A stretch of DNA of 32,000 bases from Candidatus Saccharimonadota bacterium. GTDB taxonomy: Bacteria > Patescibacteriota > Saccharimonadia > Saccharimonadales > Saccharimonadaceae. Under the pieces are notes generated by a model. It did no database searches, was not told the origin of the DNA, and worked only from the letters and a program-made list of their open reading frames with translations. The position numbers and the translations under genes are program-made. How positions within the stretch are numbered: the first letter of the stretch is position 1; the number at the start of each line of letters is the position of its first letter. Positions 2,826 through 24,246 of the stretch are shown in pieces. The stretch lies in assembly GCA_001897305.1 (NCBI GenBank), contig MKSO01000001.1, positions 480,001-512,000 of the forward strand, read 5' to 3'.

Positions 2826-5182
2826 TGGAAACACCACTAACACAAGATGAACTATATCGCATCAACGGCTATTGGAGAGCAGCTAATTACTTAGCCGTTG
2901 GACAAATGTACCTACGGGATAACCCCCTGCTGCGTCGACCGCTTGAATCAGGTGACATTAAAAACATGATCCTTGGGCACTGGGGAACAACACCTGGGCA
3001 AAACTTTATATATGCCCACCTCAACCGCGTTATTAAAAATAACGACCTGAATATGCTCTACATTTCCGGGCCTGGTCATGGTGGCCCAGCTTTGGTTGCC
3101 AATGTATACCTAGAAGGTGTTTTTAGTGAGTACTATCCAGAGATTCCACAAAATGAAGAAGGGATGCGAAAGCTGTTTCAAAGCTTTTCATGGCCGGGCG
3201 GACTCGCAAGCCACGTGTCGCCACAGATCCCAGGTTCTATGCACGAAGGCGGCGAGCTTGGATATTCACTAAGCCACGCATTTGGTGCTGTATTCGACAA
3301 CCCCAGTCTTATTGCAGCTTGTATTGTAGGTGATGGTGAAGCAGAGACGGGTCCACTTGCAACAGCGTGGCATTCTAATAAGTTCCTTGACCCCCAGACA
3401 GATGGCGCCGTCTTGCCTATTCTGCATTTAAATGGCTACAAAATTAGTAACCCTACCCTTTTAGCTCGCATCGAACACGAAGAACTTGAACAGCTACTTC
3501 GAGGCTACGGCTGGAACCCATTCTTTGTAGAAGGCGACGAACCCGAGCGTATGCACCAACTAATGGCTAGTAAAATGGATGAAGCTATTGCCGAAATTAA
3601 ACGCATACAATCGAATGCTCGCAACAATGGCGATACCACACGACCTCGTTGGCCTATGATAGTCCTTCGTTCACCAAAAGGCTGGACGGGGCCTAAAGTA
3701 GTCAACGGCAAGCAAATTGAAGATAATTTCCTTTCACATCAGGTACCTATCCTAGTTGATTCCGCTCACCAAGAAAATATCCCATTACTCGAAGCCTGGA
3801 TGCGTAGCTATAACCATGAAGAACTTTTTGAAGACGACGGGCGACTTAGGGCCGAATTTGCCGAACTAGCGCCAAAAGGCAACCGACGCATGGGAGCAAA
3901 CACCAACGCCAACGGCGGCGAAGCACTTCATGAACTTCACCTACCCGACTTCCGAGACTATGGTATTGAACCACACCGCGGTGCAAGTTCCAGCGAGGGT
4001 AACGTTCATGCCCTTGGCCCTTACTTACGGGACGTTTTGAAGCTAAACCAAGCGAGCAGTAACTTCCGTATTTTCGGCCCGGATGAGCTAGTGTCCAACC
4101 GGCTAGAGGCGGTCTTTGAAGTCGCCAGCAGGCAGTGGAACGCCCGCGTCCGCGAGCATGATGAATTCCTAGCTACAAGCGGCCCTATTCTCGACTCAAT
4201 GCTCAGCGAACACCAGGCACAAGGCTGGCTAGAAGGCTATCTTCTAACGGGTCGACATGGTATTTTACACAGCTACGAGGCGTTCATTCGTATCGTTGAC
4301 TCGATGGTAAATCAGCATGCCAAGTGGATCAAGATGTCCAAAGAGTTATCATGGCGCAAAGACATTCCGTCGCTTAACTACCTGCTCACCTCTCATGTTT
4401 GGCGTCAAGACCACAACGGCTTCACCCACCAAGATCCAGGTTTTATTGACCACCTCATCAACCACAAAGCCGATACGGTACGCGTCTACCTGCCGCCAGA
4501 TGCTAACACGTTACTTTCCGTTATGGACCACTGTTTGCGCAGCCGTAACTATATTAACCTTACCATTACCGGCAAACACGCCGCACCGCAATGGCTCACC
4601 ATGGATCAAGCCATCGAACATTGTACGCGTGGTATTAGTATTTGGGACTGGGCGTCAAACGATAACGGAGAGCCTGACGTCGTCTTGGCTGCAGCCGGTG
4701 ATATACCGACACTAGAGATAATGGCAGCTCGCTCAATTTTGGCTGAACATTTACCCGAGCTAAAAGTACGCGTTATAAACGTTGTCGATCTCATGCGTCT
4801 TCAAGATAAAACCGAACACCCTCACGGTATGAGCTCTCCTGAATACGACGAACTATTCACAAGAGACAAGCCGATCATCTTTGCCTATCACGGCTACCCA
4901 TGGCTGATTCACCGCCTTACCTACCGCCGCAACAACCAACGACTCCACGTTCGCGGCTACAAAGAAGAAGGCACTATTACTACCGCTTTCGATATGACTG
5001 TTCGTAACGATATGGATCGCTTTCATTTGGTGCTCGATGTTATCGAACGCGCCGAGCTTGCTAGTCCAGCCGCACTGAGCCTGAAAACACTCATGCAACA
5101 AAAGTTAGTTGAGCACAGCAATTACATTGTCGAAAATGGCATCGATATGCCCGAGATTGTTAACTGGGAGTGGAAAAGCTAA
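2825..5182 (+). CDS. xfp: xylulose-5-P/fructose-6-P phosphoketolase
   Basis: 785 aa. [31 protein letters not shown] and GDGEAETGP signatures. GGGAGGG SD upstream. Translationally coupled to ackA. Confidence 0.95.
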
Positions 5183-6117: not shown

Positions 6118-6285
6118 TTACGTAGTCTGTATAAAGCTCGGCTCTTCAAAAGAATACAAGACCTGGAATCGAGGGCCATCATAAACATCAAGGTAGTCCT
6201 GGATCTTAAAACCTGCTTTTTCAAGCATACGATCCTTAGCGCTCTCAAACACACAAGCTGTCTCTATTCTCTCTTTGCTTTCGGT
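6118..6285 (-). pseudogene. GNAT acetyltransferase C-terminal remnant
   Basis: A 55-codon open frame bounded upstream by TGA: TESKERIETACVFESAKDRMLEKAGFKIQDYLDVYDGPRFQVLYSFEEPSFIQTT*. The ...RMLEKAGFK... segment is the typical GNAT C-terminal region. There is no N-terminal part and no usable start. Confidence 0.4.
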
Positions 6286-6322
6286 TCAAAGAGCTAAAAC
6301 TTGTGTCTGAAGAACTTAAAAA

Positions 6323-6625
6323 TTACCTGAATATTAAAATAGAAATCGCAATAGAAAACTCGACTATTACATAAAGAATATAGGAGACGATTAGAGGCCT
6401 CATTTTCTTCTTTATTCCATATATCAGCCAAGCTAATGACGAAATAGCTAAGTATCCCCAGGTAATTAAAGAGACGTTCTCCGCACTCCTCGCTGAAATA
6501 ATGCTAATGAGCTAGGGTAATTCAAACAAAGGCGTCGTGAATGCAAAAACATATATAAAATTATCGAATGCCGAGCGTTTTTGCTTTTTGGTAATGTGTT
6601 TGTGTGCTTGAGCGTGTCTAACCAT
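6323..6625 (-). pseudogene. SemiSWEET/PQ-loop sugar transporter with an in-frame TAG
   Basis: MVRHAQAHKHITKKQKRSAFDNFIYVFAFTTPLFELP*LISIISARSAENVSLITWGYLAISSLAWLIYGIKKKMRPLIVSYILYVIVEFSIAISILIFR*. This is a ~100-codon 3-TM layout with W..YG. The TAG at 6512-6514 sits where the Q of the PQ motif belongs. The ORF track shows only the upstream piece (6512..6715). Confidence 0.6.
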
Positions 6626-6668
6626 TAGCATAGTATAGCAAAAAGCCTCTAATGCAGGGACTTTTTTA
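6626..6668 (-). promoter_or_regulatory. terminator-promoter cassette (hairpin, then TTTTTGcTATACT, 6 nt, ATG)
   Basis: Minus strand: AAAAAGTCCCTgcattAGAGGCTTTTTGCTATACTatgctaATG. The hairpin follows the SGNH gene, and its U-tract runs into the extended -10 of the SemiSWEET gene. Confidence 0.45.
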
Positions 6669-6698
6669 TAATAACCATATTGAATAGGGTTAGAACTT

Positions 6699-7226
6699 TT
6701 AATATACAAGTTCACTCATTTTTTGAATAATCTTGTCGTATCCGAGCTTGTTCACATGAAGTCCATCGTCTTCGTGATATTCATCGAGACCCTCAAATAA
6801 TATGTTTGTCTCGATAACCCTGACACCGACTGATTCAAACATATTCTCAACACTGTGATAATAAGTTTTTAAAGAGCTGTTAAATTCATTCATTTGCTCT
6901 TTGTCATGAAGATCAACATCTGGGCATTTAAGCATTATTATTTTAGTTCCACTAAAAGAACTCAGTATCTTCTCTACGTTATCTGCGAATGCATCTATGG
7001 TAATGACATTCTTCCAGGGAGCTACGTCGTTGGCACCAAAAGATAACACTACATATTCTGGATGTAACCTCGATATATATTGAGCACGACTAACAAGATC
7101 TGAAGTATTCCAGCCTCCGGCTGCGCAATTATACACGGTAAAGTTATCTAGTTCATGCTCTAGCTGATCAATTAGATCCTTTCCGAATCTTCCGAGAAAA
7201 CTATCGCCATATAACACCATGTTCAT
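6699..7226 (-). CDS. SGNH/GDSL hydrolase
   Basis: GDS (MNMVLYGDSFLG), GG, GANDV and DGLH blocks. ATG at 7226 is preferred over the track's GTG at 7253 because the -10 box sits 6 nt upstream and the N-terminus is typical. Confidence 0.8.
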   Translation of the reverse strand: MNMVLYGDSFLGRFGKDLIDQLEHELDNFTVYNCAAGGWNTSDLVSRAQYISRLHPEYVVLSFGANDVAPWKNVITIDAFADNVEKILSSFSGTKIIMLKCPDVDLHDKEQMNEFNSSLKTYYHSVENMFESVGVRVIETNILFEGLDEYHEDDGLHVNKLGYDKIIQKMSELVY

Positions 7227-7241
7227 AGGTTTAGTATAACA
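7227..7241 (-). promoter_or_regulatory. extended -10 abutting the SGNH start (predicted leaderless)
   Basis: Minus strand: TGtTATACT, then aaacct (6 nt), then ATG. Confidence 0.5.
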
Positions 7242-7315
7242 AAAACAGACCACAATCTCGTAGTCTACTAAAGCATGTGCTTGATAGCATTCTCTACTGG
7301 ACGAACATAGAACTT

Positions 7316-7783
7316 TTAATCTTTTGCTATATAGCCTAAAACATCAAAATCAGGATGAAAAACTTCTAGCATCTCAAACTTCGGATGAGCTATCTCACGA
7401 ATAAATGGTGACTTACCCAAGTAAGTACTTTTAAATGCATTATAGTCTTCAACCACATAGTCACCACAACCAACCTGTGAGCGATATGGATCTGGCCTCC
7501 TAATACCTATAAGACTTATTCGACTATCATTGATTTCTATTGGCTTTGTTGGCTTAACATAATAGCTTGGTTCAGAAGTGCCGTCATTTTCTCCAATTGT
7601 ATCAATCCACTTTCTAAGGAAAGTATACTCTGCATCATAATGTGCAAATATCTTTAAGGTATCGATGGGTAAGTCGGTTTGAATCGCTACTTTAATAAGC
7701 ATCCCAAGCTGCGCGTTTATATAAAGTAACGCCTCTGAACATTGCTCGTCATTTGTAATAGGACTGAATCGGTACAACTGCAT
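7316..7783 (-). CDS. hypothetical protein (155 aa)
   Basis: Intact ORF with a promoter at its start. There are faint VOC/glyoxalase-like strings (CGDYVVEDYNAF, VFHPDFDVLGYI) but no confident family. Confidence 0.6.
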   Translation of the reverse strand: MQLYRFSPITNDEQCSEALLYINAQLGMLIKVAIQTDLPIDTLKIFAHYDAEYTFLRKWIDTIGENDGTSEPSYYVKPTKPIEINDSRISLIGIRRPDPYRSQVGCGDYVVEDYNAFKSTYLGKSPFIREIAHPKFEMLEVFHPDFDVLGYIAKD

Positions 7784-7829
7784 AGTTATATCATAACAAA
7801 AAGCCTCTAAATTAGAGCTTTTTGTTATG
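7784..7829 (-). promoter_or_regulatory. terminator-promoter cassette: ~18-bp palindrome plus extended -10 abutting the start
   Basis: 7792-7829 reads CATAACAAAAAGCcTCTAaatTAGAGCTTTTTGTTATG, a near-perfect palindrome with one bulge. On the minus strand its 3' arm reads TTTTTGtTATGAT, then ataact (6 nt), then ATG (7783). Confidence 0.5.
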
Positions 7830-7924
7830 CTTAAGTTTGGCTAAAGCAATTGTATAAACTTAGAACTTTATATGATTTCTATGGTTACGCCAAGACCCGA
7901 TGGATCAGAGACAATGCACTAAGA

Positions 7925-9514
7925 TCAAAATATCCAAGAAGAGAAATTCTGCACCAATCGCTTATACGCGGTAGTTACAGGGGCAAGGTTGAATTTAAGA
8001 GGAGGATTACTGAGCATCGTTAAATAAAGGCTCAGTACGCTCGGCACGGCAATCATAAGAATGGGGAGTACGCTCTGTACAGTAATGAGCGCAATAGCCA
8101 CGAGGCTTAGTGCAAATAGGAGCTCTCGATAGTTAAAGCGGATTGCATCGCTAAAGCTAACCGCCGTACTTTCTTTTGGCGTTACATGAAAGTGAGCTCT
8201 TGCACCAAGCATAGACTTTGTTGATGCGAGAAGACTAATATAAAACATTGAACCGTATAGTATAAAACTGTGCAGAAGATATGAAATAAGTCGAGAAAAA
8301 GGCATGCGCTTATAGTGATAAATAATATCGTTTAGCATTGGGGCTAGCAGAAATAATAGAGTCGGTATGATAAGCCACCCTGGGTAACTCAAGTGGTAGT
8401 TAAGGAGCGGCAGTGCGACAAGATTGATAACGATATAGAGCGCGAAAAATGCGGTGAGCGGCAGATTGTATGTAAATAGGACGATATCGAGCTTTTCGTA
8501 CCAGCTCATGTTTGATAGCATAATGCGCTTCGTATAGGTCTTAATAAACTCCATATTCCCCTGTGTCCACTTGGAATGCCGTTTTTTGAATGCTAGATAA
8601 TCCACCGGATATTCTTCTTGGCACCGAATGTTTTGCGCAAATGCCACATAGTAGCCTTTGGTACGAGCTTCAATACTGAAACACAGGTCTTCGGCTACGA
8701 CATGAGGAAATCAGCCGACCGCTTCATAACATTTGCGGCTTACCATTGCACCATGCCCAAGAAGCGACATAAAGCCATGATGGTGTTTTGTCATTTGGTA
8801 AGTTGGCCAGTGCGAGTTAACTCCCTTAGAGAAAATATGCATAAAGTCATTACGGTTGCGCGTTGCCACGTGATTTGCCTGTACGACGCCAATGTCGCTA
8901 AAGCGACTGAAGTATTTTAGTGCTGATGTAATGAAGGTACTTGGAATTACTTCATCACTATCAAGAATGACGAAGTAGTCGTAGTCAGTACGTCCTTTGA
9001 GGTAATTATTTAGGTTGCCTGCCTTGAACCCGGCACGATCTGTACGACGAATCACTTCAATGTCGTGACGCTTTGCAAATTGGTCTACCCGATCAAGATA
9101 CTCTTGTTTGCTAGAGTCATCCAAGATAACAGTTTTAAAGTTATCATACTTTTGCTTCATAGAGCGCTCGAGACTATGCTCGTTAAAGTCATTGGCCGTG
9201 CAGTACACGAGGACGATAGATGGGCTGCGCCTAAGCCGAGTGCTTGTTGCCGTTCGAATAAGCCTATTCATCTGACCCCGAAACAGATAGTAATAGATAA
9301 CGTAGGTGATATCTTTTACACCGTTTAGCCAAAAGTAGCTAATGAAAAGAGCGTTCAAAATAAGCAGCGCAATGAGAAGTGGCTCGTATGGACTATTACT
9401 ATTTCCGGCAAGAATAATTTCATGAATGAATGGATAGGCTGTAAACGAGATAAGGCCAGCCCACACAGTAAGCATTGCAATATATAGTCGGTTTGATTTG
9501 CGAATTTTGAACAT
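7925..9514 (-). pseudogene. membrane-embedded processive GT2 glycan synthase (OpgH/BcsA-like) with an in-frame TGA
   Basis: Track ORFs 8711..9514 and 7925..8647 are in the same frame and are separated only by TGA at 8711-8713: ...GHGAMVSRKCYEAVG*FPHVVAEDLCFSIEARTKGYYVAFAQNIRCQEEYP...KRHSKWTQGNMEF. Motifs are DDS, FKAGNLN, DSD, (G)GF..ED and a QxxRW-like segment, plus N- and C-terminal TM segments. Confidence 0.7.
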
Positions 9515-21046: not shown

Positions 21047-21448
21047 CTAGACTTTTTCAATATTATCGACAGTCATTTGGAGAAAATGATCGCGAGTATC
21101 CTTAGCGCCTTGAAGAAGGTCTTCTTTGGTAACCCACTTGTAATCGGCATGTTCCCAGCTTAAGGTGACTTCAGGGCTATCCTTTGCTAATACGGCATAT
21201 AAGGCAAACTGCGTGCCAACGCGTGAATAGCGCCTTGTCTTCTCAATAAGCCTGAGTTGATCGTGATCCAAGCGAATGCCGGATTCTTCATATACTTCAC
21301 GAATAGCCGCCTCTTCAAGCGTTTCACCCTTTTCCAACGTTCCACCGGGCAAATCCATAGCATTACCGAAGATAGGATGGTTATTCCTAAAAAGCACAAG
21401 ATATTTGCCCTCAGGATTTTTAAATAGAACCTTGGCGACTTTTAACAT
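21047..21448 (-). CDS. NUDIX hydrolase
   Basis: Nudix box GTLEKGETLEEAAIREVYEESGI. ATG 21448 is preferred over the track's TTG at 21460, which lies only 5 nt from the tRNA 3' end. Confidence 0.85.
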   Translation of the reverse strand: MLKVAKVLFKNPEGKYLVLFRNNHPIFGNAMDLPGGTLEKGETLEEAAIREVYEESGIRLDHDQLRLIEKTRRYSRVGTQFALYAVLAKDSPEVTLSWEHADYKWVTKEDLLQGAKDTRDHFLQMTVDNIEKV

Positions 21449-21465
21449 AATTTCAAACAAAAAAA

Positions 21466-21735
21466 TGGAGCCACGATCGGGGCTTGAACCCGAGACCTCA
21501 TCCTTCGCTTACACCTCTTCTTCTATGTCGCTAAAAGAGGGCTAGACTGTATCTTAGGCATATTACACATTGTAACGTAGCCTCCCTTGTCAGTCGTTCG
21601 GGCGATTGTATCGCCACGGTCTTACCCAGCGAGGGCTTTAACCGTAATTCGGGATTCACTCGTAAATTTCTCTACAAGTGGGCAGGGCCTTTGCGACCTA
21701 CCATGGATGCGCTCTACCAACTGAGCTATCGCGGC
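21466..21735 (-). tRNA. tRNA-Thr (anticodon GGU) interrupted by a group I intron; CCA encoded
   Basis: 5' exon 21735-21700: GCCGCGA-TA-GCTC-AGTTGGTA-GAGC-G-CATCC-AT-GGT. 3' exon 21505-21466: AA-GGATG-AGGTC-TCGGG-TTCAAGC-CCCGA-TCGTGGC-T-CCA. The joined exons give a 76-nt cloverleaf closely resembling bacterial tRNA-Thr(GGU). Confidence 0.85.
21506..21699 (-). ncRNA. group I intron (ORF-less, ~194 nt) between tRNA positions 36 and 37
   Basis: The exon ends in U, giving a U.G pair in P1 (GGU|AGG with CCUGCC). Other helices: P2 CACUUGUA/UACGAGUG; P3 UCCC/GGGA; P4 ACGGU/ACCGU; P5 GCCC/GGGU; P6 GGCGA/UCGCC; P7 GACUG/CAGUC; P9 CCUCUU/AAGAGG. The string AAGAUACAGUC resembles the conserved AAGAUAUAGUC. 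The intron ends in G. Confidence 0.75.
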
Positions 21736-22274
21736 ACACTTAATTGATCAACCAACCAGTTCCTAAGCTTCATGTTAAAAACATAAACCGTCAGTACACC
21801 ATAATGGTTTTTCATTTTGTACGTACCTATTTTACCACTTTTTATACAATTTATAGTAGGCATAACTTGGTTTTTATTAATCTTTAGAGTATTAACCCAA
21901 TAAGACAGAGCTATTTTAGGATCTATATCGCTAAAAATCTGCAAACTAAACTTAATTTTACTCCGATCTACGCCGCAGATTTTTACAAGGAAATCAATAA
22001 ATACAGCAAGCAATCTAGGGTCAGTATTGCCAACGCGAACTGTGTGTTTGTTTTTCTTGTTTCCTTCTCCCCAATAGATACCGAGACCAAGCCCAAATAG
22101 TATCCGATCGCTGGGCGATAGTTTACGAGAAATCATAAAACCATCATCAACGCCATGTTTTTTAGCAAAAATCGCTTCACTAATTGAGCGTTTTTGTATA
22201 TTAAACTTATTTAGCCAATAATCAACCTTGGATGACGAGTAGCCCAATGAGCGAGCTATATCACTGACCGACAT
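21726..22274 (-). CDS. LAGLIDADG-like homing endonuclease with an N-terminal HTH, free-standing
   Basis: 182 aa, AT-rich. HTH-like SVSDIARSLGYSSSKVDYWLNKF and a single motif FGLGLGIYWGEGNK. The stop codon lies inside the tRNA-Thr 5' end. Confidence 0.55.
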   Translation of the reverse strand: MSVSDIARSLGYSSSKVDYWLNKFNIQKRSISEAIFAKKHGVDDGFMISRKLSPSDRILFGLGLGIYWGEGNKKNKHTVRVGNTDPRLLAVFIDFLVKICGVDRSKIKFSLQIFSDIDPKIALSYWVNTLKINKNQVMPTINCIKSGKIGTYKMKNHYGVLTVYVFNMKLRNWLVDQLSVPR

Positions 22275-24060: not shown

Positions 24061-24137
24061 GCCGCCTTAGCTCAGTTGGTTAGAGCGGCTGTTTTGTAAA
24101 CAGTAGGTCCACGGTTCGAATCCGTGAGGCGGCTCCA
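24061..24137 (+). tRNA. tRNA-Thr (anticodon UGU), CCA encoded
   Basis: GCCGCCT-TA-GCTC-AGTTGGTTA-GAGC-G-GCTGT-TTTGTAA-ACAGT-AGGTC-CACGG-TTCGAAT-CCGTG-AGGCGGC-T-CCA. Confidence 0.9.
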
Positions 24138-24161
24138 AATTTATAACTAGGTTACCCATAT

Positions 24162-24246
24162 GCAGGGGTTGTGGAGCGGTCAAACACAGCAGACTGTAAA
24201 TCTGCCACCTTCGGTTTCGCAGGTTCGAATCCTGCCCCCTGTACCA
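24162..24246 (+). tRNA. tRNA-Tyr (anticodon GUA), long variable arm, CCA encoded
   Basis: GCAGGGG...CAGACTGTAAATCTG...variable arm CACCTTCGGTTTC...GCAGG-TTCGAAT-CCTGC-CCCCTGT-A-CCA. Closely parallels bacterial tRNA-Tyr. Confidence 0.9.

Follow-up and report, generated by a model that had tools for sequence, protein, structure and literature searches.

The tRNA-Ile(CAU) precursor of Azoarcus sp. BH72 carries an IC3 group I intron ('Ile2.5Ug') that is ORF-less, about 200 nt long and inserted directly after U36, and this intron self-splices efficiently. The cyanobacterial and plastid tRNA-Leu(UAA) intron is also of the IC3 type, but it occupies another tRNA and another site (U34/A35), is found by standard models and is experimentally well characterized. 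It is reportedly widespread in one phylum, where it is said to be mostly vertically inherited and sporadically absent. Group I introns are also found in phage protein genes, and the orf142 gene of Staphylococcus phage Twort has three of them. The setting closest to the locus described here is found in a preprint by Williams (2020, bioRxiv 10.1101/2020.01.27.920355), which lists 21 tRNA/intron settings and includes the seed 'Rba53.Thr.5Ug', an intron located after ggU of tRNA-Thr. The statement in an earlier, sequence-only reading of this DNA that no Thr(GGU) host was known is thus outdated by this entry. Lui et al. 2021 (PMC8172020) briefly mention group I introns in CPR tRNAs, and a literature search on group I introns in tRNA-Thr, CPR, Saccharibacteria, Patescibacteria and Parcubacteria found only this remark and the Williams preprint.

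The locus lies in a window of 32,000 nt (positions 480,001-512,000 of the Candidatus Saccharimonadota contig MKSO01000001.1, assembly GCA_001897305.1). It is, with high confidence, a functional Saccharibacteria tRNA-Thr(GGU) gene that is split at U36/A37 by a compact ORF-less group I intron, and all of its features are on the minus strand of the window. The 5' exon (21735-21700) holds the acceptor 5' strand, the D arm, the anticodon stem 5' strand and the loop nucleotides A32, U33, G34, G35 and U36, of which U36 (21700) is U(-1) of the 5' splice site. The 3' exon (21505-21466) supplies A37 and A38, the anticodon stem 3' strand, the variable loop, the T arm, the acceptor 3' strand, the discriminator U and an encoded CCA (21468-21466). 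Once the 194 nt between them (21699-21506) are excised, the joined exons form a 76-nt cloverleaf. For c[21466,21735], ARAGORN run with its intron option (-i) reports tRNA-Thr(ggt) and places an intron of 194 nt at tRNA positions 36/37, and the split gene with an intron directly after the anticodon, as proposed from the sequence, is therefore exact to the base. The junction is further determined by comparison with uninterrupted genes. The ligated exons are identical at 76/76 positions to 19 uninterrupted tRNA-Thr(GGU) genes from metagenomes, so precise excision restores the host gene. Further intron-free copies that are identical at 70-74 of 76 positions occur at syntenic Saccharibacteria loci, where the gene order is tRNA-Thr, rpmG, hyp223 and GH15 and where identity reaches 98.5% for L33 and is approximately 60% for GH15.

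The neighbours of the intron-bearing tRNA gene are an HTH-like gene, NUDIX and rpmG. The upstream gene (21726-22274) is a conserved CPR gene of 182 aa that is HTH-like in some homologues, and its TAG stop codon is formed by tRNA nucleotides U8-A9-G10. The identical 10-nt overlap of gene and tRNA is found in relatives (in L002 the gene spans 3001-3549 and the tRNA starts at 3540). The overlap suggests that the 182-aa gene and the tRNA are co-transcribed. A promoter and terminator scan near the tRNA gene gave no signal above shuffle expectation.

The intron (21506-21699) was assigned to group I by ARAGORN -i, folding, covariation and the family model R1. All group I helices, including the P3/P7 pseudoknot, are found in canonical order. 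Covariation was examined in 117 distinct homologues that were aligned with MAFFT in a structure-blind manner. In this alignment 92.8% of the pair cells are paired, compared with 31-43% when the partners are slid, double (compensatory) changes occur at 32 of 50 pairs, and none of 500 shuffles attains any of the observed covariation measures. All pairings put forward for an ORF-less group I intron in the sequence-only reading are supported, most of them by covariation among these homologues, and each element that it named (P1, P2, P3, P4, P5, P6, P7, P9 and the terminal G) is in the sequence, as is AAGAUACAGUC, which it had placed ahead of P7.

P1 is formed by a 5' strand (21702-21697) that consists of exon GGU (21702-21700) and intron AGG (21699-21697), and by a 3' strand, the internal guide sequence CCUGCC (21686-21681). 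All 117 of 117 sequences have the U.G pair at the 5' splice site, and covariation is seen in the intron-side pairs of P1 (AU/GU/UA/GC and GC/AU). P2 (21680-21657) is a hairpin of 10 bp that is capped by a GAAA tetraloop, L2, at 21670-21667 and shows compensatory changes at 10/10 pairs. P3 is a pseudoknot of only 3-4 bp between UCCC (21654-21651) and GGGA (21586-21583). Its CCC/GGG core is kept in the 117 sequences, with a C>U change yielding G.U in 7 cells, and one C-G to U-A double change is found in a phage copy, L255. The P4-P5 domain (21645-21616) consists of P4, ACGGU (21645-21641) paired with ACCGU (21620-21616), J4/5 UAAA, the P5 hairpin (21636-21624) with strands GCCC/GGGU, and J5/4 AAG. 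P4 does not vary across the 117 cellular sequences, while P5 has compensatory changes at 3 of 4 pairs. P6 (21615-21601) is a GGCGA/UCGCC hairpin that is supported by compensatory changes at all five pairs.

The 5' strand of P7, GACUG (21595-21591), is invariant in every member and follows an A (21597) and a bulged C (21596). J8/7, UAAGAUA (21556-21550), and the P7 3' strand, CAGUC (21549-21545), were read in the sequence as one element (21556-21545) that equals AAGAUAUAGUC, the Rfam group I model consensus, at 10/11 positions. The sole mismatch is the 3' half of a P7 pair in which the 5' partner is changed too. Overall, A[C]GACUG pairs with CAGUCU and has UAAGAUA ahead of the latter, in agreement with the RF00028 consensus AGACUA...AAGAUAUAGUC. 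By analogy with known group I introns, the pair G21595-C21545 is the predicted guanosine-binding pair. Since P7 and most of P4 never vary, the case for these helices comes from their identity with the group I consensus and not from covariation. P3 and P7, which are backed by conservation rather than covariation, are the weak points of the core.

The P8 hairpin (21582-21557) has closing pairs that covary in the 117 sequences, and it carries CUA(C/A)G...UAUG, a motif resembling the 11-nt GAAA-tetraloop receptor. The type of P8 is linked to the type of L2 (Fisher p = 9e-15). An L2 of GAAA accompanies a long, receptor-type P8 in 83 of 91 cases, and GUAA, GCAA or GGAA accompanies a short P8 in 20 of 21. 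A predicted tertiary contact between the L2 tetraloop and the P8 receptor is supported by this covariation. In the 3' domain (21542-21506), P9.0 pairs GC (21542-21541) with GC (21508-21507). It is paired in 98.3% of cells and both of its pairs covary (GC/AU/GU/UA and CG/UA/UG). P9 (21540-21514) is CCUCUU/AAGAGG with an AUAA/GAAAU internal loop and covaries at 6/6 pairs, and the terminal guanosine, omegaG, is at 21506. A convincing P10 was not found in the intron. The unconstrained minimum free energy fold of the intron alone recovers P2, P4/P5, P6, P7, P8 and P9 (z = -3.7), and that of the 270-nt precursor recovers the tRNA arms and P1 (z = -4.5; equalled by 0/200 shuffles).

The intron resembles that of Azoarcus in several respects. 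Both follow U36 directly and share size and lack of an ORF, P1 is short and includes three pairs with the exon in both, P5abc and P2.1 are absent from both, and both combine a GAAA L2 with a P8 that has a CCUAAG...UAUGG-type receptor. The sequences of P4, P6, J6/7 and P7 differ, however, with ACGGU and CGAACGACUG in the window and UUCGGCG and GUAGAGACUA in Azoarcus. Additionally, unlike in Azoarcus, P6 forms a simple hairpin, P5 is a hairpin of 4 bp without an obvious L9 receptor, and P9 has its internal loop in place of a terminal GAAA. The same picture is obtained from the IC3 class as a whole. The peripheral architecture is that of IC3 (P2 present, P2.1 and P5abc absent, L2 tetraloop/P8 receptor), although the second IC3 contact, between an L9 tetraloop and a P5 receptor, was not found and the internal loop of P9 is there instead. 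The IC3 core signature of the Williams seeds (AAAUUCGGGGAAA / CAAUCCCGAGCCAAG / GGUGUAGAGACUAGAC / AAGGGAUAGUCC) is replaced in the window intron by GAAUUACGGUUAAAG / AAGACCGUGGC / CGAACGACUGACA / AAGAUACAGUCU. A family profile that was searched with nhmmer against six accepted bacterial tRNA group I introns from the Williams seeds and shuffled controls gave a best E of 0.059, which is not significant, and no link to IC3 could be drawn at the sequence level.

The seed Rba53.Thr.5Ug shares with the window intron a bacterial tRNA-Thr host, the site after nucleotide 36 (ggU/A), U(-1) and the terminal G. The locus is therefore a new, well-supported instance of the already listed 'Thr.5Ug' class. 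However, the published seed is GC-rich and IC3-like (AAAUUCGGGGAAA ... GGUGUAGAGACCAGAC ... AAGGGAUGGUCC), unlike the window intron, and it has no significant sequence similarity to the window family (nhmmer E = 3.3). A second comparison is provided by the introns in CPR tRNA-Asp(GUC) ('Asp.4Ug') and tRNA-Met(CAU), which share genomes and even contigs with the Thr intron (L028, L045, L080 and L114) and are likewise ORF-less, with sizes of about 200-240 nt. The window intron is collinear, element by element, with the RF00028-certified tRNA-Asp intron of L080. Unlike the Thr intron, the Asp and Met introns have a canonical GUAGAGACUA...AAGAUAUAGUCC core and occupy other positions of the anticodon loop, and R1 gives only weak local P7-P8 matches to them (E = 0.11 and 1.1).

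The intron is present in 4/4 distinct syntenic relatives that were found via a neighbouring protein. A scan with a core pattern matched at least 119 species-representative genomes, the majority carrying the label of a Patescibacteria lineage, and in 125/125 parsable cases the host is tRNA-Thr, U(-1) is U36 of GGU and the intron ends in G. Family members range from 175 to 229 nt. R1 scores the window intron at 210.9 bits, which is the only R1 match in the window, and it separates full-length copies (96-211 bits) from background. These data establish the structure of the gene, its precise exon junction, the helices with their covariation and the conservation at one site across the phylum.

The standard models behave differently. 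RF00028 (Intron_gpI, gathering score 50 bits), the covariance-model check suggested in the sequence-only reading, which named a missing match as part of a refutation, matched nothing at E<=10, whether in the window, in 13 further family members or in the phage copies. As a control, the same model scores 38-81 bits on the tRNA-Asp and tRNA-Met introns of genomes that carry the Thr intron. We therefore take the miss as a limit of model sensitivity for a divergent lineage, and the null result is uninformative given the strong comparative and exon-junction evidence. Recognition by RF00028 is an operational criterion and not a defining biochemical feature of group I introns. The tRNA gene is found neither by ARAGORN in default mode nor by the Rfam tRNA model, as had been anticipated for routine tRNA finders, whereas ARAGORN with its intron option recovers it. 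The tRNAscan-SE 2.0 paper indicates that the tool was not built for detecting such introns. The anticodons that ARAGORN assigns to the homologues vary (Arg gcg, His gtg, Pro ggg and others). The existence of several different host tRNAs, as these calls would have it, was rejected because every homologue is Thr(GGU) with an ambiguous boundary.

Relatives of the family, with R1 scores of 96-122 bits, are found inside phage major-head-protein genes, with up to three copies per gene (compare the three introns of Twort orf142), and their removal restores the reading frame. These copies come from uncultured IMG/VR contigs and were found with a pattern that omits P7, whereas the P7-based cellular core pattern had 0 matches in viral contigs. 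A blastn search in 'distant' mode with the window intron and one phage copy found nothing in 50,697 GenBank phage records. An alignment of the window intron and the phage copies (A2, 12 distinct rows) shows that P7 is still invariant in all 12 rows and that the first pair of P4 changes from A-U to U-A in the phage copies. In these copies the guide sequence changes together with the exon side of P1 (GGU/GCC, GCU/GGC and GAU/GUC), and GGU ends 4 of 8 distinct 5' exon contexts. When three phage introns are cut out at the splice sites predicted from P1 and P9.0, a single major-head ORF of 442 aa results, and the restored protein matches PHROG 9953 collinearly across two junctions. The P9.0 rule gave in-frame 3' splice sites for two phage introns in which the model alignment was off. 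Pfam gave no match for the spliced phage protein or for a portal-like ORF. That the family has relatives in capsid genes of phages hints at a route by which phages and their hosts may exchange the intron.

These relatives raise the possibility of a different history, in which the intron, instead of having been passed on vertically in CPR since ancient times, would be a phage-borne mobile intron that repeatedly invaded ...GGU/A sites, including the anticodon of tRNA-Thr, by xGCC-guided reverse splicing. We regard this as a possible but less likely account. It would be in keeping with the phage copies themselves, with the half of their exon contexts that end in GGU, and with the coexistence at syntenic Saccharibacteria loci of intron-plus and intron-minus alleles, the exons of which agree at 70-76 of 76 positions. 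However, all 125 cellular copies are at one site of one tRNA, a homing endonuclease gene is absent, and the exact cellular core pattern occurs in no phage copy. In the alignment the intron sequence types also appear to track the exon and host types, which fits mainly vertical descent with losses.

We infer that the Thr intron is catalytic, needs guanosine and Mg2+ and works without protein cofactors. The precursor would be transcribed, probably together with the upstream 182-aa gene. The intron would then fold into P1-P2, a P4-P5-P6 stack and a P3-P8-P7 pseudoknotted core, with the GAAA tetraloop of L2 docking onto the P8 receptor. The CCUGCC guide would pair with exon GGU and intron AGG to place a U.G wobble at the 5' splice site, where exogenous guanosine, held at the P7 G-C pair, would attack after U36. 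P9.0 would bring the terminal G (21506) to the same guanosine site, and the 3'-OH of U36 would attack after G21506, ligating the exons into the anticodon loop AUGGUAA and releasing the intron. The spliced junction expected from these steps is ...CAUCCAUGGU joined to AAGGAUG...

It is conceivable, if rather unlikely, that an intron of this architecture splices only with a host protein cofactor (CYT-18-like or maturase-like) or under unusual conditions. The intron is very small, as is the family, its P3 has only 3-4 bp, it has no peripheral stabilising domains besides the L2-P8 contact and no clear P10, and it is divergent enough to escape RF00028. The Azoarcus tRNA-Ile intron, however, is of similar size and still self-splices efficiently, every catalytic-core element is present, and the L2-P8 contact covaries. 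The neighbours of the intron (the HTH-like gene, NUDIX and rpmG) include no candidate for a cofactor gene, and the same family works in phage capsid genes with presumably varied hosts.

That the locus is a decaying pseudogene, with a non-splicing insertion derived from an intron and with function supplied by another tRNA-Thr(GGU) copy, is very improbable. The search for other copies covered 32 kb of the genome, and a promoter-like site is absent directly upstream; ARAGORN found no second tRNA-Thr(GGU) in this 32-kb window, which is part of a 915-kb scaffold. Against this explanation, the exons show no damage and do not differ from uninterrupted alleles, purifying selection on the intron core is strong and is accompanied by compensatory changes in over 100 species, and the terminal G and U.G pair are universal in the family. 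Additionally, Thr is most often encoded by ACC in 28 window ORFs (167/512) and ACC and ACU together make up 58% of Thr codons, so tRNA-Thr(GGU) is needed, and tRNAs are usually single-copy in CPR genomes. Some other intervening sequence, be it a group II intron, an insertion element or a bulge-helix-bulge intron of the archaeal type, is hardly credible even though RF00028 does not recognise the intron. The insertion is at 36/37 and not at the canonical 37/38, and the junctions are in P1 with U.G and after a G positioned by P9.0 and not in a bulge-helix-bulge. A group II intron or insertion sequence would be much larger than these ORF-less 194 nt, cmscan of the window matched no other Rfam family, and only group I introns have the helix order P1-P2-P3-P4-P5-P6-P7-P3'-P8-P7'-P9.

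Beyond the single locus, there is about an even chance that the family is a distinct, undescribed minimal group I lineage (175-229 nt) that occupies GGU/A of tRNA-Thr across much of Patescibacteria, is shared with uncultured phages, where its copies invade major-capsid genes often at ...GGU/, and is invisible to RF00028 and default tRNA finders. If so, CPR annotations would systematically lack tRNA-Thr(GGU) or miscall it as Arg(GCG), His(GUG) or Pro(GGG), and the guide-sequence match that links the tRNA anticodon with the phage targets would be a sign that phages and their CPR hosts exchange the intron via reverse splicing.

In a phylum with reduced genomes, the tRNA that decodes the most frequent Thr codons escapes both default ARAGORN and the Rfam models for tRNAs and group I introns, and ARAGORN with intron options often misassigns the anticodon of family members. 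As a result, the tRNA complements of CPR, completeness checks and inferences of codon reassignment can be wrong, and a family-specific covariance model would remedy this annotation gap. The family is among the smallest natural group I ribozyme designs. With more than 100 diverse sequences, clear covariation that extends to P9.0 and to a swap of tetraloop and receptor types, and natural intron-plus and intron-minus alleles, it makes a good system for studying ribozyme structure, and it suits the question of why streamlined genomes keep an intron in an essential tRNA.

The tRNA-Thr(GGU) gene lies on the minus strand and is split into a 5' exon (21735-21700; GCCGCGAUAGCUCAGUUGGUAGAGCGCAUCCAUGGU), which holds the acceptor 5' strand, the D arm, the 5' strand of the anticodon stem and the loop through the anticodon GGU, and a 3' exon (21505-21466; AAGGAUGAGGUCUCGGGUUCAAGCCCCGAUCGUGGCUCCA). 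The joined exons form a normal 76-nt cloverleaf with an encoded CCA. The sequence-only reading had placed a group I intron directly after the anticodon, and its coordinates, as well as all of the helices that it listed, are correct in the sequence; ARAGORN with introns allowed, which it had proposed as a check, reports c[21466,21735] as tRNA-Thr(ggt) with a 194-nt intron between positions 36/37. Its forecast that routine tRNA finders may miss the gene was borne out, since default ARAGORN and the Rfam tRNA model did not detect the split locus in the window. tRNAscan-SE 2.0 is not designed to detect group I introns (tRNAscan-SE 2.0 paper). The junction predicted for the ligated exons was searched for in metagenomes, which gave at least 120 uninterrupted tRNA-Thr(GGU) genes, of which 19, among the matches listed, are identical to the ligated exons of the window at 76/76 positions. 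Uninterrupted genes that are 70-74/76 identical are also found in the gene order of the window (tRNA-Thr, rpmG, hyp223, GH15) at loci L217, L186, L227, L132, L166, L197 and L212, where the protein identity to the window is at most 98.5% for L33 and ~60% for GH15. By comparison with these syntenic intron-free alleles the insert is an intron in the classical sense, and its presence differs among Saccharibacteria.

Homologous introns are widespread in Patescibacteria (CPR). Four distinct relatives, identified by 59-75% identity in the neighbouring 182-aa protein, all have a tRNA-Thr(GGU) that is split at this position by an intron of 187-203 nt. A core-pattern scan (P7-J7/3-P3'...J8/7-P7') of one genome per GTDB species matched at least 119 species-representative genomes, whose labels include Saccharibacteria, Parcubacteria/Paceibacterota, Nomura-, Yanofsky-, Taylor-, Azam-, Wolfe-, Buchanan-, Andersen-, Doudna-, Uhr-, Portnoy-, Staskawicz-, Lloyd-, Moranii- and Peregrinibacteria. 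Among the matches listed, the 5' exon ends in ...(A/U)UGGU and the 3' exon starts with AA and the complementary anticodon stem in 125/125 parsable loci, a G directly precedes the 3' exon in all 125, and the intron length is 175-229 nt (median 200). ARAGORN with introns typed the hosts (L013-L131) as Thr, Arg(gcg), His(gtg), Pro(ggg), Leu(gag), Gln(ttg) and others; this apparent variety of hosts is a boundary artefact, because the intron boundary can slide over a repeated G, U or A, and every parsable locus is Thr(GGU). Such mis-typing of the interrupted gene is an annotation hazard. CPR-type interrupted tRNA-Thr genes were also observed on contigs named as Pedobacter, Gammaproteobacteria, Simkania, Kapaibacterium, Dongiaceae and Ignavibacteria (L015, L027, L031, L032, a 637-kb contig, L095, L099, L108 and L116), names that probably reflect mis-binning or mislabelling rather than true occurrence outside Patescibacteria.

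Minimum free energy folding of the intron alone recovers P2, P4/P5, P6, P7, P8 and P9 (z = -3.7), and folding of the whole precursor adds the four tRNA arms and P1 (z = -4.5). To compare homologous loci, 117 distinct intron sequences were aligned with MAFFT, blind to structure, and the helices of the sequence-only reading were scored together with P9.0, formed by the two bases 3' of P7' and the two bases preceding the terminal G. The covariation that this reading had put forward as a check is present, with changes on both sides in 32 of the 50 pairs; 92.8% of 5,848 cells are paired, compared to 31-43% after a shift of the 3' partners by 1-3 columns, and none of 500 shuffles reached any one of the observed measures. 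The splice-site U.G pair is kept in 117/117 sequences and the intron side of P1 covaries. Double changes occur in 10/10 pairs of P2, 3/4 of P5, 5/5 of P6, 3/3 closing pairs of P8 and 6/6 of P9, and both pairs of P9.0 covary (GC/AU/GU/UA and CG/UA/UG) while being 98.3% paired. P4 is invariant, as is P7; the invariance of P7, P3' and J8/7 is uninformative in this alignment because these elements were fixed by the search pattern.

The alignment also points to a tertiary contact between L2 and P8. Most members have a GAAA tetraloop in L2, combined with a P8 motif, CUA(A/C)G...UAUG, that is similar to the 11-nt GAAA receptor, whereas with GUAA, GCAA or GGAA in L2 the short P8 helix begins (U)CC...GG(A). 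Receptor-type P8 accompanies GAAA in 83 members and other P8 types in 8, as opposed to 1 and 20 for the alternative loops (Fisher p = 9e-15, a figure inflated by relatedness). Loop-receptor switching of this kind accords with the established rules by which GNRA loops and receptors pair up, and it matches the L2-P8 contact of the Azoarcus intron.

The Rfam group I model RF00028, which the sequence-only reading had proposed as a check, gives no match at E<=10 in the window or in 13 diverse family members, and nhmmer against six accepted bacterial tRNA introns returned nothing significant. RF00028 does identify introns in tRNA-Asp(GUC) (L080 2137-2427, 52.4 bits; L028 1513-1802, 46.3 bits; L045 6366-6680, 38.5 bits) and tRNA-Met(CAU) (L114 6857-7101, 81 bits) on contigs that also bear the Thr intron, so in some CPR genomes two or more different tRNAs with introns lie within a few kb of each other. 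The L080 Asp intron, aligned to RF00028, and the Thr intron of the window are collinear element by element: P3 is CCGG and UCCC, J3/4 GAUA and GAAUU, P4 UCGGU/ACCGA and ACGGU/ACCGU, P6 GG...CC and GGCGA...UCGCC, J6/7 with the P7 5' strand GUAGAGACUA and CGAACGACUG, P3' CCGG and GGGA, and J8/7 with P7' AAGAUAUAGUC and AAGAUACAGUC, respectively. A family covariance model built from the 117-sequence alignment gave only weak local matches to the Asp introns, in their P7-P8 region (E = 0.11 and 1.1). On the strength of its architecture, its covariation and its exons, the Thr intron is therefore classed with the group I introns, which supports the original reading; it is not placed in subgroup IC3. 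The intron is real and is very probably a functional group I intron, for which we infer catalysis. Elsewhere, ARAGORN called a tRNA-Ala(agc) with a 247-nt intron (L107 4883-5225), in which RF00028 has no match at E<=1; the call is either false or marks a further intron that escapes recognition. When the 5' end of a CPR 23S rRNA gene (L056 1-768) is aligned to the bacterial LSU model, large insertions stay unaligned (blocks of 142 nt and 46 nt, and one more of ~55 nt); they look like the rRNA insertions reported for CPR.

The window derives from the metagenome-assembled genome KANT15-1 (SAMN05389819; 915-kb scaffold), and homologues of the genes adjoining the split tRNA are labelled Candidatus Saccharibacteria or Patescibacteria. 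The neighbours include a NUDIX hydrolase, rpmG, GH15 and GH57 glycosidases, an RNA methyltransferase with a tRNA (uracil-5-)-methyltransferase domain (PF05958) and, upstream, the conserved 182-aa gene (21726-22274, minus strand), which is HTH-like in some homologues. The TAG stop of this gene is formed by tRNA nucleotides U8-A9-G10, a 10-nt overlap (21726-21735, minus strand) that is kept in relatives (e.g. L002 3540-3549). The stop codon inside the tRNA, together with a promoter scan that found no promoter-like site between the two genes, suggests that they may be co-transcribed and that RNase P would set the 3' end of the mRNA. Among the Thr codons of 28 long window ORFs, ACC is the most frequent (ACC 167, ACU 132, ACA 116, ACG 97), and the only other tRNA-Thr there is UGU (24061-24137), so a working GGU isoacceptor is expected to be needed. 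This need, the intact exons and the strongly constrained intron argue that the gene is expressed and spliced. The tRNA-Thr(UGU)-tRNA-Tyr(GUA) pair (24061-24246) lies ~2.3 kb from the split gene on the opposite strand and is kept in the relatives whose loci, as covered, extend that far (L002-L006, L010-L012), which makes this a small and stable neighbourhood of tRNA genes. An 89-aa ATG ORF (21276-21545, plus strand), which lies antisense to the beginning of the NUDIX gene, to the tRNA 3' exon and to the 3' portion of the intron, is almost certainly spurious.

Relatives of the intron were found in phages with a second pattern, J3/4-P4...P4'-P6, so that the viral set was not ascertained on P7. 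Ten uncultured viral contigs matched, the family model scores 96-122 bits with up to three copies per contig, and ARAGORN found no tRNA in the contigs with these matches. The copies have no match in GenBank phage records, nor to RF00028 at E<=10. In an alignment of the window and viral copies, P7 is still GACUG/CAGUC in 12/12 distinct rows, the first pair of P4 is switched from A-U to U-A in viral copies, and one sequence has U-A in place of C-G as the middle P3 pair. The exon bases of P1 covary with those of the guide sequence (GGU/GCC, GCU/GGC, GAU/GUC), and GGU, as in the tRNA-Thr anticodon, ends 4 of 8 distinct 5' exon contexts. In contig L254, three copies (6280-6469, 6746-6935 and 7569-7752; 5' splice sites from P1, 3' sites from the P9.0 rule) split a gene (region 6187-8080) that follows portal-like and scaffold-like ORFs. 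Their excision yields a single open frame of 442 aa, whose product matches PHROG 9953 'major head protein' (E = 1.1e-5) in a collinear stretch over the first two junctions. Homologues of this protein hold other viral copies (L253, L258, L260, L261; L259 is identical to L254), and uncultured phage contigs have one to three family introns inside the major-head-protein gene. Because excision restores the head-protein frame, the family behaves like a genuine intron in this second host gene as well, which is unrelated to the tRNA.

The sequence-only reading knew of no Thr(GGU) host, but this tRNA/intron setting is already in a preprint, which extends the four classical tRNA intron settings to 21, contains Thr.5Ug (Rba53, 'ggUA...UGcc'), Thr.3Ug, Thr.2Ug and Asp.4Ug in its seed alignment, and gives a rate of 0.49 interrupted tRNAs per genome for metagenomic assemblies from unnamed phyla (Williams 2020, bioRxiv 10.1101/2020.01.27.920355). 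Group I introns have also been reported in some tRNAs of circularised CPR genomes (Lui et al. 2021, PMC8172020). A literature search found no published description of the particular CPR Thr(GGU) intron family. New here are the exact junction proof and the phylum-wide distribution at one site, the systematic failure of RF00028 on the family, its covariation including P9.0 and the L2-P8 contact, and the occurrence of its relatives in phage capsid genes.
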